Positions 3,108-57,456 are shown, counted from the first letter of the stretch. The stretch is 64,000 nt of DNA from a virus (IMGVR_UViG_3300035422_000089:9670-73669), one strand, 5' to 3'. The notes: generated from the sequence alone by a model not told the origin. Made by a program: numbers and translations.

Positions 3108-3436
3108 AGGAGGAAGAATTAATGGCAGATATTATTAAATTTCAGCAGTACGTTAATGCAAAAGATGAAGAGAAAAGACGTATTAAACAGGTATCTTTAT
3201 TGTCTACAAAGAGCAAGAATATTGAAGGATTATTACATAATATTAGTAATAGTGTAGGATGTTCATTTGTAACAAAGCATTTTGGTGAAATGAATCAGAT
3301 TGTAGAAAAAGAAAACATACTTGATCCTGCAATGTTGGAGGTGATTATTAATTTTCTAAAGGATTATAATAGTAAGATTTGTGAACAGATTAAAGAATTG
3401 AGTGGCTATGATACGAAGGTAACTATATCGTATTAA
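3098..3436 (+). CDS. Hypothetical protein (likely start ATG 3122)
   Basis: ORF with GGAGG SD. Confidence 0.7.
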   Translation: MCLKEEELMADIIKFQQYVNAKDEEKRRIKQVSLLSTKSKNIEGLLHNISNSVGCSFVTKHFGEMNQIVEKENILDPAMLEVIINFLKDYNSKICEQIKELSGYDTKVTISY

Positions 3437-3483
3437 AAGCCGCATTTCAAAGGGAAAATTGAAGAGAAAAGGAGAAAAATATT

Positions 3484-3708
3484 ATGAATTATGGTAGATG
3501 TATTATTTTTGGTGATAAGGAGTGTAAGAAAACTCTACCAATGTCATTAGCTGAGTTGGAAAGTGCAGTATTTGAAATTACCAAGAAGCAGAATTATATA
3601 TCGAATTGTGGATTAAGTGTTGAGGTTACTGCACTTGCAATTAAGGAGTTACAGGAACAGAAAAAGAAACTGTTGGATTTGATGCACAAAAAGGTTGATG
3701 AACTGTAG
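3484..3708 (+). CDS. Hypothetical protein
   Basis: 74-aa ORF with AGGAG SD. Confidence 0.7.
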   Translation: MNYGRCIIFGDKECKKTLPMSLAELESAVFEITKKQNYISNCGLSVEVTALAIKELQEQKKKLLDLMHKKVDEL

Positions 3709-3734
3709 GAGAAATAGTCATTAGTGATAAAAAG

Positions 3735-3830
3735 ATGAAAAGAGATGATTTAGGGAATCGGATGAAAATATTTTATGAAGAAATTCCTAAGACAAAATTA
3801 ATGAGAAGGAATATTTTAAGAATTGAGTAA
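3735..3830 (+). pseudogene. 31-codon N-terminal stub of a Thg1-like gene
   Basis: MKRDDLGNRMKIFYEEIPKTKLMRRNILRIE* resembles the Thg1-like N-terminus and parallels the ORF starting at 4921. Confidence 0.7.
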
Positions 3831-4899
3831 AAGAATTATTTTGGACAAAAATGAGCTGCACCAAAAATATGTAGTGGAGAAATTATCACAAGCTAAAACT
3901 GCAAAATACTTTAATTGTTCTATTGACACTGTTGTAAGAAACTTAAAAGATTATGGGATAAAAGCTCATAAACAAGGAGCTTGGTGTGTTTCAAATAGAG
4001 TGGAATTATCAGAATATCAAAGAAATAAGTTATGTGGTGCATTATTAGGTGATGGTAGTCTGATAAAGTGTAAGAACGGTATAAATGCACAGTTTACATA
4101 TGTTTCAAAATCAAAGCAACATGTTGAGTTTGTATGTAAGGACTTTATGGAATATTCATATAAAGAGGGAATAAAAAAATATGAATACATTGATAAAAGA
4201 ACAAAGAAGCAGTATTTACGGTATACGTTTAGAACGATTACAGATCAAGGATTTACTGCTGAATATTATAGGTGGTATAAAAATGGAATTAAGCATATTC
4301 CAGAAGATTTAATTTTAAATCCCTTAATATGTTTAATTTGGTATATAGGAGATGGTAGCATATGCAACTCTTCTAAAAATAATAGTCAATGTATAAAAAT
4401 TGCCACTAATTGTTTTGATAAAAACGAGCAAGAAAGAATTTTACTTCCTCAATTATCTGATTTTGGTGCAAGATTATGTAAGGCTGGCAAAAATAAATCA
4501 ACTAACAAATATCAATATGCAATTTACATTCCTAAAAAGAAAATGGAACAGTTCTTTGAATTTATTGGAGAATGTCCATTTCCTGATTATAAATATAAAT
4601 GGGATTATAAAGAGAAATTTTATCCATCTTATGAAGATTATTATGAAGAATGGGAAAAGTTGTATTTAAATGGAATGGGTTACACGCATATTGCTAGATT
4701 ATATGGAGCAGATAATACAACAGTTCTAAAATATTTAAGAAAAGTTGGAATATATAAGAGATTTGAGGGATACAAGCAATTTTATAAGGAATGGGAAGAT
4801 ATGTTTATTTCTGGAATGAAATACTATGATATAGCCAAAAAATATAATTGCTGTTCTCAAACCGTATTACATCATTTAAGACAAGTAAATTTATTTTAG
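3823..4899 (+). CDS. Free-standing LAGLIDADG homing endonuclease with HTH extensions
   Basis: Two LAGLIDADG motifs (LCGALLGDG, IWYIGDG); HTH-like N- and C-termini. Confidence 0.85.
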   Translation: MSKRIILDKNELHQKYVVEKLSQAKTAKYFNCSIDTVVRNLKDYGIKAHKQGAWCVSNRVELSEYQRNKLCGALLGDGSLIKCKNGINAQFTYVSKSKQHVEFVCKDFMEYSYKEGIKKYEYIDKRTKKQYLRYTFRTITDQGFTAEYYRWYKNGIKHIPEDLILNPLICLIWYIGDGSICNSSKNNSQCIKIATNCFDKNEQERILLPQLSDFGARLCKAGKNKSTNKYQYAIYIPKKKMEQFFEFIGECPFPDYKYKWDYKEKFYPSYEDYYEEWEKLYLNGMGYTHIARLYGADNTTVLKYLRKVGIYKRFEGYKQFYKEWEDMFISGMKYYDIAKKYNCCSQTVLHHLRQVNLF

Positions 4900-4920
4900 A
4901 AAAGAAAGGAGTTATACAGG

Positions 4921-5764
4921 ATGGACAATAGTAATATTGCAAAACGAATGAAAAAATATGAAGCAGTACATAAAAGTGTATTGATGAATCGTATGCCAGT
5001 CATCCTTCGTCTTTGACGGCAAGGCATTCCACACATTCACCAGAGGATTCAAAAGACCTTTTGATGATGTTCTTATTATGACAATGCAGGAAACAGCGAA
5101 ATATCTTTGCGAGAATATACAAGGTTGCTCATTAGCCTATACACAGTCAGATGAAATTTCTTTGTTACTAATTGATTATCAGAGATTTGAAACGTCGGCA
5201 TGGTTTGATTATGAAATACAGAAAATGTGTAGTATTTCTGCAAGTATGGCGACTATGGCTTTTAATCGGATATTCAGTGAAACTGTGTCTGATTTGAAGG
5301 TTGATAATACAAAAACAATGGATAGATATTTTGAGGTTGCTTATTCAGGAGCCATGTTTGATGCCAGAGTCTTTAATATTCCACGAGAAGAAGCGACAAA
5401 TTACTTCTACTGGCGGCAACTTGATGCTTCCAGGAACAGTATTCAGATGGTAGGACAAGCAAATTTCAGTCATAAAGAATTACAGAATAAATCTTGCAAT
5501 GATATTCAGGATATGCTTATGACTCAGAAAGGAATCAATTGGAATGACTTTCTTACATATCACAAACGTGGGAGCTGTGTGATAAGAACAGAAATAAAAA
5601 CGGATAAAATAGATACTATGGAAGAAATGTCGTTTGGAGAAAATAAAAAATCTTCGATAGTAAATATCGAAAGACAACATTGGATTATTGATAAGGATAT
5701 TCCGATTTTCAAAGGTAAAGGCAGACAATATATTGAACGGTTTGTGAATGTAGGAGAGGTGTAA
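4921..5764 (+). CDS. tRNA-His guanylyltransferase (Thg1)-like 3'-5' polymerase, split by a +1 frameshift at CTT-TGA-C (5011-5017)
   Basis: Joined reading ...MPVILRL/DGKAFHTFTRGFKRPFD..., YTQSDEISLL, FDARVFNIP, WRQLDASRNS. Confidence 0.85.
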
Positions 5765-55694: not shown

Positions 55695-55711
55695 GAGGCA
55701 AGATTATACTT

Positions 55712-56239
55712 TTGGATAAGCATATTTTTATAATCAATGGTTCTGGAGGCGTTGGGAAAGATACGTTTGTAGAATTAGTTTCTACAGAATTAAATGATAT
55801 ACTTAAAAAATTTCATACAGTAATCAATTTTTCTTCAATAGATAAAGTAAAAGAGATTGCAAGAGAAATAGGATGGAACGGTAAAAAGTCTGAAAAAGAC
55901 AGAAAGTTTTTATCTGATTTGAAAATTTTAACAAGTGAATATTGCGATATGCCATTTAAAAGCATGAAAAATAAAGTTGCTGAATTTATGAATGATGAAG
56001 AAAGTATATTCTTATTTTTACATATTAGAGAACCAGAAGAAATTGCTAGAGCAGTGAATGAATTTGGAGCCAAAACAATATTAGTTACTAGAGATGCTGT
56101 AAAACATATTGTTTCAAATATGGCAGATGAAAATGTTTTCAATTACAATTATGACTTTGTTGTTAATAACAGTGGTACAAAAGAAGAATTAAACATTAAA
56201 GCAAAAGATTTTGTTCAGGAGGTTATTGATAGTGAATAG
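55712..56239 (+). CDS. P-loop (deoxy)nucleotide kinase-like protein
   Basis: IINGSGGVGKDT, HIRE, DFVVNN. Confidence 0.75.
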   Translation: MDKHIFIINGSGGVGKDTFVELVSTELNDILKKFHTVINFSSIDKVKEIAREIGWNGKKSEKDRKFLSDLKILTSEYCDMPFKSMKNKVAEFMNDEESIFLFLHIREPEEIARAVNEFGAKTILVTRDAVKHIVSNMADENVFNYNYDFVVNNSGTKEELNIKAKDFVQEVIDSE

Positions 56240-56687
56240 AACAATTTACCTTGCGGGTGCTATGTCATGTTATTTCAACACCAAACAACATGATTATCCA
56301 AAGAAGTGGAGAGAAGACGCAAAAGAATATGTTAAAAAATTATATGAAGACATTACTCTTATATCTCCAACTGATTTTTACGAAATCGGTAAAAATTATC
56401 ATAAGACAGAAACAGAAGTAATGCGATTTGATCTTAGAATGGTTAGGGAATCAGATATTGTATTATGCAATCTAAGAGATTTACATAGTTCATTAGGAAC
56501 CAGCGATGAAATTTTATATGCGTTTATTAGTGGAAAACCTGTAATTGGATTTTTGGAAGATGAATCTGAAATAAAGAATATTCATCCGTGGAAAATTGAA
56601 CAAATTGACAGAATCGAAACTGGTGAAGATGCTATGAAGAGGGCGATTGACTATATCTATAGATATTATGTGGATAGATATAATTAA
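56232..56687 (+). CDS. Nucleoside 2-deoxyribosyltransferase-like protein
   Basis: IYLAGAM..WR, DL.MV.ESD, GTSDE. Confidence 0.75.
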   Translation: MNRTIYLAGAMSCYFNTKQHDYPKKWREDAKEYVKKLYEDITLISPTDFYEIGKNYHKTETEVMRFDLRMVRESDIVLCNLRDLHSSLGTSDEILYAFISGKPVIGFLEDESEIKNIHPWKIEQIDRIETGEDAMKRAIDYIYRYYVDRYN

Positions 56688-56910
56688 AAGAAAGGAGATT
56701 ATAGAAATTTTAGAAATAATCAGTACAAGCCATGCGTTAGCTAAAGAACTGTTAAGTAAGCCAGACGGTTTTATAACAGCTATGCTTGGTGATGAAGAAT
56801 TTATAATTAGTAATACACAGAAAGTAATTACACACGCAAATATTGATGACTCAGAGACTCATTGGACGTTAAATTTGCGTGATGGTGGTAGTGGAAATTT
56901 GAAGAGGTGA
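56647..56910 (+). CDS. Hypothetical protein (start uncertain)
   Basis: 87-aa ORF. Confidence 0.55.
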   Translation: MTISIDIMWIDIIKRKEIIEILEIISTSHALAKELLSKPDGFITAMLGDEEFIISNTQKVITHANIDDSETHWTLNLRDGGSGNLKR

Positions 56911-57063
56911 TAGTAAGTTGATAAGGAACGAATACAATTATAATACAAATTTTAAAAAATATGTTGATGAATTTTGCAAAAATAATAATTGTACTGTAGA
57001 AGACGCATTGGAAAATGATCAGGTAAAAAGAATGTTTTGGAGATATACAGAGGTATAGATTAA

Positions 57064-57303
57064 ATGAAAATTAATATTAACACAATAGAAAAAGCTAAAG
57101 AATTTGTGTCTATATGTAGTAAATATCATGATGGAGACATTCTTGTTAAGCAAAATAAATATGCGGTAGATGGGAAAAGTACACTTGGAATTTTTAGTTT
57201 GAATTTAGTAGAACCCGTAAAAGTTATTATGGATTCTGAAAATGATAATTCTAAGATTGGTTTTTATAATGAAATTCAAAAATGGAAAGTAGAAAACAAT
57301 TGA
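57064..57303 (+). CDS. Second HPr-like protein lacking His15
   Basis: VDGKSTLGIFSL. Confidence 0.75.
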   Translation: MKININTIEKAKEFVSICSKYHDGDILVKQNKYAVDGKSTLGIFSLNLVEPVKVIMDSENDNSKIGFYNEIQKWKVENN

Positions 57304-57456
57304 TAAAATGCCTGTTTCATTGGCTGAGAAGAGGTGAATTATAAATGAAAATTAGTTTATTTGACAGATTTTTTGAATTTGATTTTGACTGGAAAGCAGT
57401 TGTAGGCATTGGATTTTGGGCTGTGCTTTATTAACAATGTGAGGAGGAAATAGTTA

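Follow-up and report, generated by a model that had tools for sequence, protein, structure and literature searches.

The palindrome and its copies

The window analysed here is a stretch of 64,000 nucleotides of viral DNA (IMGVR_UViG_3300035422_000089:9670-73669), that is, bases 9670-73669 of a 73.7-kb IMG/VR viral contig with a CheckV completeness of 38%. Its G+C content is about 30%, and almost every gene lies on the same strand. Between many of its accessory genes stands a short gapped palindrome, TRAAW-N6-TTTYA, in which two inverted arms enclose a core of six bases (N6) that changes from copy to copy. This element, its place among the genes and its behaviour when related phages are compared are the subject of the present account.

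A repeated intergenic palindrome in the accessory array had been reported from the sequence alone, and the counts bear this out. The pattern gave 58 strand matches at 34 places in the window, whereas 100 shuffles gave 15.2±5.3 with a maximum of 39. Intergenic sequence, 12.7% of the window, holds 29 of the 34 exact places, so that copies are 25 times as dense there as in coding sequence. One-mismatch copies were not, as a class, enriched between genes (0.8 times the coding density), and about six of them look genuine by their context (15278, 24292, 24575, 28845, 50953 and 51359). Most copies start from -3 to +15 nucleotides relative to the preceding stop codon and end 11-38 nucleotides before the following start codon, each site lying between a stop codon and the following Shine-Dalgarno sequence. 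The nine copies in which TRA was said to be the upstream stop were all recovered, seven of them exact (3434, 7085, 13562, 25003, 25340, 30560 and 50572) and two with one mismatch (24292 and 28845).

The array also extends beyond the window: the first 9.7 kb of the contig, which lie upstream of it, contain a further 10 sites. Within the window, no intergenic copy was found from 31348 to 45565, where the replication block lies, or beyond 57304. The earlier statement that the replication block and the nrdD-int region are free of copies therefore holds for intergenic sequence, with the qualification that a perfect TGAAA-N6-TTTCA lies at 61145-61160 within an nrdG-like coding sequence. Similar in-gene copies occur at G002 19213 and G014 154371, and the copy at 61145 may be either a coding coincidence or a genuine site. 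The copies are listed below in window coordinates and without strand, followed by two gene features of the window; G-numbers denote related genomes.

3434-3449: site, N6 GCCGCA; its TAA is the upstream stop
6354-6369: site, N6 CTAACA
7085-7100: site, N6 AATTCA; its TGA is the upstream stop
8370-8385: site, N6 AATTGA
8792-8807: site, N6 TTTCCG
9188-9203: site, N6 CGAAGG
9800-9815: site, N6 GAAACA
13562-13577: site, N6 CCCACG; same 16-mer core in the relative G005
13915-13930: site, N6 TCTGCG
19222-19237: site, N6 TCGAGA; preceded by the paired ACyATATATAG element
19440-19455: site, N6 AATCTG
22027-22042: site, N6 ATTTTG
23614-23629: site, N6 CATCGG
25003-25018: site, N6 TTTTGC; its TGA is the upstream stop
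25340-25355: site, N6 CCAGAG; its TAA is the upstream stop
26844-26859: site, N6 GGTTAA
27144-27159: site, N6 TCTTGG; address also in the Lactonifactor prophage G008, flanking proteins unrelated
29698-29713: site, N6 CCGAAA; address also in G007, slot content unrelated
30560-30575: site, N6 GCGTTC; its TGA is the upstream stop; address also in G007, slot content unrelated
31348-31363: site, N6 TTCTTA; also in G007; the last one ahead of the replication block
45565-45580: site, N6 TAGGAC; address in G006, G007 and G008; the 96.8% identity with G006 stops inside it
47274-47289: site, N6 GATAGG; kept in G006 between unrelated genes
48573-48588: site, N6 CGCTCG; kept in G006 between unrelated genes
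50143-50158: site, N6 CCACGC; many left and right flank combinations across IMG/VR
50572-50587: site, N6 CAAGTC; overlaps the upstream stop; right bound of the slot CCACGC to CAAGTC
53430-53445: site, N6 TTCAAA; also in G007, both flanks homologous
54781-54796: site, N6 GTGTTA; also in G007, flanks unrelated
55676-55691: site, N6 AGATTA; also in G006, flanking proteins unrelated
57304-57319: site, N6 TGCCTG; the last site, ahead of nrdD; identical 16-mer in G004
15278-15293: probable degenerate site, TTAAA-cttgca-TTTCA; Shine-Dalgarno sequence next
24292-24307: probable degenerate site, TGAAT-ttttca-TTTCG; its TGA is the upstream stop
24575-24590: probable degenerate site, GAAAA-caactc-TTTCA
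28845-28860: probable degenerate site, TAAAA-gcacga-TTTCC; its TAA is the upstream stop
50953-50968: probable degenerate site, GAAAA-tcgcaa-TTTTA; Shine-Dalgarno sequence next
51359-51374: probable degenerate site, TTAAA-tgtgtg-TTTCA; a TGTGTG address exists in G007
32959-45496, plus strand: conserved replication and recombination block, without sites, encoding AAA_24/Sak4-like, DnaB-like, DHH, PolA-like, RecD2-like and Gp157 proteins (by Pfam, the polymerase by its relatives)
62330-63511, plus strand: tyrosine integrase of 393 amino acids, a variable module

The sequence logo built from 166 intergenic sites of four genomes has the form A-TGAAA-[not A]NNNN[not T]-TTTCA-T, the arms in the window phage being degenerate to TRAAW/WTTYA. 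In the logo the edge positions of the spacer are constrained symmetrically and a Shine-Dalgarno signal appears at +17 to +23 after the motif, and the G+C content of the spacer is about 42%, versus 28% in the surroundings. The strong half-site CAATRAAA is found on either side of the spacer, as is expected of a symmetric DNA site. Since the R and Y positions show no covariation between the two arms, with A..C as the most frequent combination, the element is a sequence palindrome with a consensus and not a base-paired stem. This bears directly on the hairpins for mRNA processing that had been named as an alternative, and more widely on any intercistronic hairpin serving processing, stability or translational control. 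The element is palindromic and lies on the mRNA between the stop codon and the following Shine-Dalgarno sequence, but the mismatched A..C is the commonest combination in the window (12 of 29 sites) and about as common as G..U in G003, predicted folds of 0 to -4.3 kcal/mol are no better than those of shuffles, and what is conserved is the sequence of the stem, with CAATRAAA on either side, rather than its pairing. An RNA element is thus highly improbable.

Other familiar kinds of site were also considered. A promoter was rejected, as the 166-site logo lacks any -35 or -10 signal and the site runs straight into the Shine-Dalgarno sequence; a scan for sigma70 matches between 19 and 33 kb found them no more frequent than in shuffled sequence. 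Host sites of the cre, CRP or parS-like kinds presumably do not fit, in either spacing or half-site, and a literature search for the motif string found no paper.

Relatives of the window phage carry 39-56 copies of TRAAA-N6-TTTYA versus 5-11 of a control pattern, and in five further genomes the perfect TGAAA-N6-TTTCA is present in 15-25 copies versus 0-1 for the control. In G003, which is complete, the sites fill a long co-directional early arm (35.8-139 kb), with almost none in the structural arm. One relative, G004, shows no enrichment of the motif (11 vs 10) or of any other gapped palindrome, despite a replication block that is 87-91% identical in nucleotides. The genes present in motif-bearing genomes but not in G004, which is 65% complete, were candidates without functional annotation.

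Two further observations concern the arms and their surroundings. The R/Y variation of the arms is entirely C-to-T in TTTCA, on one strand or the other, as in the window sites 45565, 47274, 48573 and 50143 when set beside G006, and TAAAA/TTTTA arms are far commoner in the window phage than in its relatives. Near-identical genome pairs showed 10 arm differences versus 4.5 expected, and no N6 differences. This pattern suggests that the arm cytosine is hypermutable, perhaps methylated. A second repeat, made of two ACyATATATAG palindromes 32 bp apart, occurs in the window at 19171-19213, 31291-31333 and 45508-45551, just 5' of the sites 19222, 31348 and 45565, and in relatives CACTATATATAGTG copies lie just 3' of sites. 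It is possibly a promoter or operator of early transcription units.

Shared addresses between unrelated genes

A query with the polymerase of the window retrieved 26 related viral contigs, several of them complete at 165-180 kb (the family being of about 175 kb) and some classed as proviruses, and one relative, G008, is held as a prophage in the isolate genome of Lactonifactor sp. BIOML-A5. The prophage setting proposed at the outset is thereby supported, and the family is one of temperate phages of gut bacteria; no close cultured relatives were found in the phage collection. For the comparisons that follow, 10 genomes with 284 intergenic sites were used, and the reversed N6 served as the control.

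When the window is aligned with G006, the 96.8% nucleotide identity over the shared replication genes stops at 45578, within the site 45565-45580, and downstream of this point the genes between sites are unrelated in both DNA and protein. Six cores, TAGGAC, GATAGG, CGCTCG, CCACGC, CAAGTC and AGATTA, nevertheless follow one another in the same order in the two phages, with the N6 and 2-10 flanking bases conserved. Over the whole comparison set, 173 cross-genome pairs of sites had the same N6 in the same orientation, versus 4 in the control. Homology of the flanking DNA was present on both sides in 22 of these pairs, on the left only in 31, on the right only in 29 and on neither side in 91. At the protein level, among the 144 pairs that could be called, the corresponding figures were 18 for both, 19 for upstream only, 15 for downstream only and 92 for neither. 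The order of the cores is largely colinear within two subgroups, G000/G006/G007/G008 and G001/G002/G003/G009/G010. The observation that the N6 differs in essentially every copy held in all 10 genomes, in which no duplicate was found versus 3.6 expected (P=0.026), and none of 180 N6 was self-complementary versus 3.3 expected (P=0.027).

Judged from these comparisons, the N6, here termed the address, marks its junction, each junction combining the same palindromic arms with its own unique and asymmetric 6-bp core, and the DNA between two addresses (1-4 genes) is, as far as the alignments indicate, replaced as a unit by crossovers inside the element. The genes of such slots are for the most part DNA methyltransferases, RNA-repair genes and others with a likely role in counter-defence. 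Among 166 pairs of slots bounded by the same two addresses, the contents were unrelated in 54, the same in 20 and partly shared in 92. Several slots have three unrelated alleles, among them the slot from CCACGC to CAAGTC (in G000, G006 and G007) and that from TGTTGT to TGCGTC. The joining of flanks is equally varied at single addresses. At GTTCCC, left flank types A, B and C join right types X and Y exactly at the motif. A scan of IMG/VR with the address of the window site 50143 (CCACGC/GCGTGG) gave a similar assortment in both orientations. In the reverse one, which reads GCGTGG in G003, three left types (A, B and C) were each joined to both right types (X and Y), all six combinations being present, and further flank types exist.

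The same data speak to the proposal of the sequence-only reading that each small gene is a mobile cassette, of the integron or pdif kind, shuffled by a recombinase to which heterology of the 6-bp overlap is no obstacle. The architecture of a core site fits this proposal, the breakpoints of gene replacement do fall on the sites when related phages are aligned, a check that it had suggested, and a few exchanges between different addresses exist. The movement itself is not seen, however: where slot contents are homologous, both bounding addresses are the same in 9 of 11 cases, and no cassette lies between two copies of one address, that is, there are no a-gene-a duplications. Tolerance of overlap heterology is likewise unsupported, exchange being overwhelmingly between copies of the same N6. 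Among pairs with homology abutting the site on one side, an identical N6 was kept in 20 of the 24 left-only pairs and in 21 of the 28 right-only pairs, 41 of 52 in all, and several of the mismatched exceptions trace to a second repeated element. Nor is there an integron-type integrase, the window integrase and three early-arm recombinases scoring 19-38 bits versus the TIGR02249 cut-off of 265, and the sites are neither attC-like nor provided with the 11-bp arms of dif-like sites. Free mobile cassettes are largely refuted and have become very improbable. The slot contents and the unique, non-palindromic addresses together fit in-register replacement of alleles on a fixed scaffold.

The position of the crossover within the element can be narrowed further. 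In pairs homologous on the left only, the per-position identity is at background from +16, and in right-only pairs it rises only from -2. The left arm is identical in 18 of 20 left-only pairs and the right arm in 4 of 20, versus 8 of 21 and 18 of 21, respectively, in the right-only pairs. Arm variants thus go with their own flank, which places the exchange point in the central 12 bp. Rare exchanges between different addresses also occur at the arms, as with left gene A, next to which both CAAACG and GTCAAG occur, an outcome that homology alone would not readily produce. Had the N6 diverged as the homologous flanks have, 29.6 mismatches would be expected in it; 7 were counted, about four times fewer, which could reflect either constraint on the N6 or an unusually deep divergence of the flanking genes.

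How far the sites stand apart from ordinary gene boundaries was judged from 857 unique alignment ends in the 10 genomes. Gene boundaries and intergenic sequence, 16% of the genome, hold 60% (511) of these ends, and 103 of the 511 lie within 10 bp of an exact site, versus 28 expected. About one in five of the intergenic joints, rather than all of them, is thus attributable to the motif. In informative comparisons, a break was present at 86% of motif junctions, at 54% of other gaps of at least 25 nucleotides and at 34% of tight junctions.

If the palindrome were purely a regulatory or structural DNA site, such as an operator or the binding site of a nucleoid-type protein, its match with breakpoints would come only from selection for joints between genes. 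Phage mosaic joints do usually fall at gene boundaries, as the 60% of ends in 16% of the genome illustrates for this family. The joints here, however, map to the motif itself and not to the remainder of the intergenic gap, the N6 outlasts the replacement of both flanks (91-92 pairs vs about 4 in the control), breaks are found at 86% of motif junctions versus 54% of comparable gaps that lack the motif, and one site combines its left and right flank types in full factorial. On these grounds, a role confined to regulation or DNA structure is improbable. Chimeric metagenome assemblies, switching between strains at a shared short repeat, might also be suspected, given that most of the genomes used are metagenome contigs. 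The shared stretch of 16-22 bp is nonetheless shorter than the usual k-mer lengths of assembly, the same sites and addresses are present in the isolate prophage of Lactonifactor sp. BIOML-A5, whose genome runs across the junctions, and identical flank combinations recur in independent samples, so that an artefact of this kind is scarcely credible. The comparisons argue strongly that A-TGAAA-N6-TTTCA-T is, in all probability, a position-specific recombination junction, whatever the mechanism.

Candidate mechanisms and known systems

The architecture of a tyrosine-recombinase core site, recognised already from the window alone, is present, with inverted arms around an asymmetric 6-bp overlap. 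Sites of the lox, FRT and dif types require an identical overlap, and the comparative evidence agrees with such a requirement, the N6 being kept in 41 of the 52 one-sided pairs and the crossover falling between the arms. In the mechanism tentatively favoured here, an enzyme would guide the exchange and would need identical cores. A dimeric phage protein would bind the arms and exchange strands over the 6 bp of the core, recombination would be productive only where two copies agree in this core, as with heterospecific lox or FRT sites, and two phage genomes, or a phage and a prophage, would swap modules in register. It is this requirement for the same core that would keep the swaps in register, without deletions or scrambling. 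The most plausible enzyme would be a recombinase of the tyrosine type, and the enzyme step is the weakest link of the proposal. The points counted for it are the core-site anatomy, the symmetric constraint on the spacer edges, the unique and asymmetric addresses, the rare exchanges between different addresses and the presence of tyrosine recombinases. In its most specific form, offered with a little more reserve, the system may be a natural multiplex cassette exchange in which a single phage recombinase would act through one arm sequence at about 45 junctions and join matching cores only.

Tyrosine recombinases number 2-3 in every complete genome. One clade, encoded in the early arm, has all the catalytic residues and a homologue in 10 of the 10 group-2 genomes tested; a search of PDB sequences with the early-arm recombinase gave no match. 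Among other candidates, a serine recombinase was dismissed, being found in only one of five genomes, as was restriction and ligation at interrupted palindromes ("Golden-Gate-like"), the sole support for which was the conserved NAD-dependent ligase.

A number of findings weigh against guidance by an enzyme. The early-arm recombinase is only 26-43% identical between genomes that have identical arms, it was not found on the contig of the window (38% complete), and no recombinase as invariant as the arms was found. The window integrase has about 30% protein identity to the integrase at the same position in G006 (about 20.4-21.4 kb), though the shared replication genes are 97% identical in DNA; integration specificity appears to have been swapped as a module, and a swapped module is a poor candidate for reading invariant arms. 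As it also scores as a generic phage integrase, it was rejected as the reader of the sites. At 6-8 bp, the conserved arms have a length usual for a helix-turn-helix dimer and small for a tyrosine recombinase. The replication block encodes recombination genes (Sak4-like, Gp157 and DHH), and these, together with 16-22 bp of identity, could explain why crossovers are in register, why an identical N6 is needed and why addresses that are duplicated or palindromic are selected against. Of the homology breakpoints that fall between genes in the family, about 80% are not at motif sites, which means that recombination at gene boundaries proceeds here without need of the motif. To these must be added that genes were called by a crude longest-open-reading-frame rule, that pairs of genomes are not independent events and that most of the genomes are metagenome contigs.

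Many of these points are the strength of another reading, in which the palindrome has a regulatory role and serves in addition as a linker of short homology. A dimeric phage regulator would use the arms as its operator, for example as a roadblock that keeps the accessory arm silent in the lysogen, in the manner of the L5 stoperators, and the 16-22 bp of same-address copies would be the only sequence common to otherwise unrelated genes, so that the relaxed recombination of the phage (Sak4-like annealing protein, Gp157 and DHH exonuclease) would cross over there, a logic common to the PeSL elements of T4 and to Botstein's linkers. A 5-N6-5 palindrome with one helical turn between the centres of its half-sites is the classic layout for a helix-turn-helix dimer, and the sites lie in short intergenic gaps of the co-directional early arm of a temperate phage. 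That a conserved recombinase was not found, that breakpoints at gene boundaries are common without the motif and that the replication block encodes a recombination module all favour this reading. Two precedents exist. In the PeSLs of T4-type phages, homologous recombination can swap modules at repeats whose role is regulatory (PMC2839356, PMC4122927), and the repressor that binds a repeated element between genes of phage SPbeta has the fold of a recombinase (PMC10516654). On the other hand, no repressor was identified and no promoter lies at the sites, the spacer is enriched in G+C (about 42% vs 28%) with symmetrically constrained edges, its mismatches are about four times fewer than the flank rate (7 vs 29.6), exchanges between different addresses at the arms exist, and selection against 16-bp duplicates implies efficient recombination at a very short identity. 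A linker of this kind is possible, if somewhat doubtful, and the two readings fit the data nearly equally well, with enzyme-guided exchange ranked slightly ahead.

Enzyme-guided exchange has its closest counterpart in heterospecific lox and FRT sites, which are engineered sets for recombinase-mediated cassette exchange with 13-bp arms and a known enzyme. The likeness extends to inverted arms, an asymmetric spacer of 6-8 bp, recombination between identical spacers, exchange as a unit of the segment between different spacers, and spacers that are unique and non-palindromic. The present sites differ in forming a natural array of about 45 addresses with arms of 6-8 bp and an enzyme that is only a candidate. 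The linkers of Botstein's module theory, or lambdoid boundary sequences, are likewise short and conserved, and by lying where modules meet they allow in-register recombination of unrelated modules, but those are few and without a common motif, and here a single palindromic design, with a variable core in each, recurs at dozens of junctions. The integron attC sites are imperfect palindromes of 57-141 bp with R'', L'', L' and R' boxes, and pdif is a 28-bp site with 11-bp XerC and XerD arms and a 6-bp spacer. Gene-sized units bounded by recombinase-type sites are common to both and to the present array, as is the 6-bp spacer of pdif. Unlike attC, however, the sites are of 16-18 bp with arms of 5-6 bp and the cassettes do not change position, and unlike pdif, only 5-6 bp are conserved per arm, both arms have the same sequence and there are no 11-bp dif-like arms.

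Regulatory repeats of phages offer the other set of comparisons. The stoperators of mycobacteriophage L5 and cluster A, read by the repressor gp71, are asymmetric 13-mers in one orientation, without a variable core, that act as repressor roadblocks. Like them, the present sites are short and conserved, occur by the dozen in the narrow gaps between genes of a temperate phage and frequently touch a stop codon; unlike them, they are palindromic, with the strong half-site on either side, and not asymmetric sites of fixed orientation. The PeSLs of T4-type phages combine a sigma70 promoter with a terminator hairpin (Arbiol et al. 2010, PMC2839356; Comeau et al. 2014, PMC4122927). Their copies are near-identical, and homologous recombination between neighbouring copies yields mini-circles (PMC2839356, PMC4122927). 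The palindrome shares with them its place between accessory genes of plastic regions, as a short conserved element at which unrelated sequences are exchanged, and it lies, as PeSLs do, at the boundaries of replacements and indels. It differs in being a palindrome of 16-18 bp with no promoter and no stable hairpin, with a unique core and with in-register exchange between genomes. The SPBRE of Bacillus phage SPbeta is a 15-bp motif in about 10 promoter regions and is bound by MrpR, a repressor with a tyrosine-recombinase fold that has lost catalysis (PMC10516654). SPbeta is likewise a large temperate phage of Firmicutes with a repeated intergenic element, but the present family has about 45 sites without promoters, and its early-arm recombinase appears from its sequence to keep all the catalytic residues.

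Gene content and the shared scaffold

The remaining genes of the window fill in the picture of this family. The polymerase of the replication block, a protein of 859 amino acids, had no Pfam match, and its relatives are annotated as DNA polymerase in phage records. Pfam matches among the accessory genes include at least 5 DNA methyltransferases, a GmrSD-like protein and an HNH endonuclease, and the window further encodes an NAD-dependent DNA ligase, an intein-bearing NrdD, an NrdG and the tyrosine integrase. The intein of NrdD (anaerobic ribonucleotide reductase, 1110 amino acids, 57457-60789) carries a LAGLIDADG homing endonuclease. At 3823-5764 another LAGLIDADG endonuclease gene lies directly 5' of a Thg1-like gene, which it interrupts by Pfam, the Thg1 match beginning at profile position 48. 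A fusion protein of 742 amino acids, encoded at 16933-19161, joins an AAA_33 kinase, a metallophosphatase and a T4-type RNA ligase (polynucleotide kinase-phosphatase/RNA ligase); it resembles an RNA repair enzyme, and its target is probably the action of host anticodon nucleases. The sole sizeable minus-strand gene of the window, at 45598-46539, encodes a DUF4062 protein and directly follows the site 45565. After the TAGGAC address of that site, the sequences of G006 and G007 differ from that of the window and from each other.

Gene turnover in the family is very fast. Only 32 of the 248 predicted proteins of G003 were found in all five complete genomes (G001, G002, G003, G009 and G010), when proteins of at least 60 amino acids were counted and a homologue had to cover at least half the length. 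On the minus strand of G003, at 95404-97676, an N6/N4 DNA methylase and a 454-amino acid ResIII/helicase protein are 97-99% identical across these five genomes, in which the other common proteins are mostly 30-95% identical. This pair looks as if it had recently spread or were strongly conserved.

How phages join unrelated genes so cleanly at their boundaries has been debated since Botstein's module theory, and in this family the joints are visible. They lie at a single repeated palindrome, with a variable core that identifies each position, and left and right neighbours combine almost freely across 16 bp. If homologous recombination acts at the sites, they would be the clearest case yet of purpose-like linkers, and 16-22 bp would be enough to structure a phage pangenome. 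If an enzyme reads them, they would form a natural set of dozens of orthogonal sites for one recombinase, which would be useful in genome engineering, and a new route by which phages trade anti-defence genes. Should the proposal be true, the family would share a fixed scaffold of orthogonal addresses, along which co-resident phages and prophages would exchange counter-defence and accessory genes in register.

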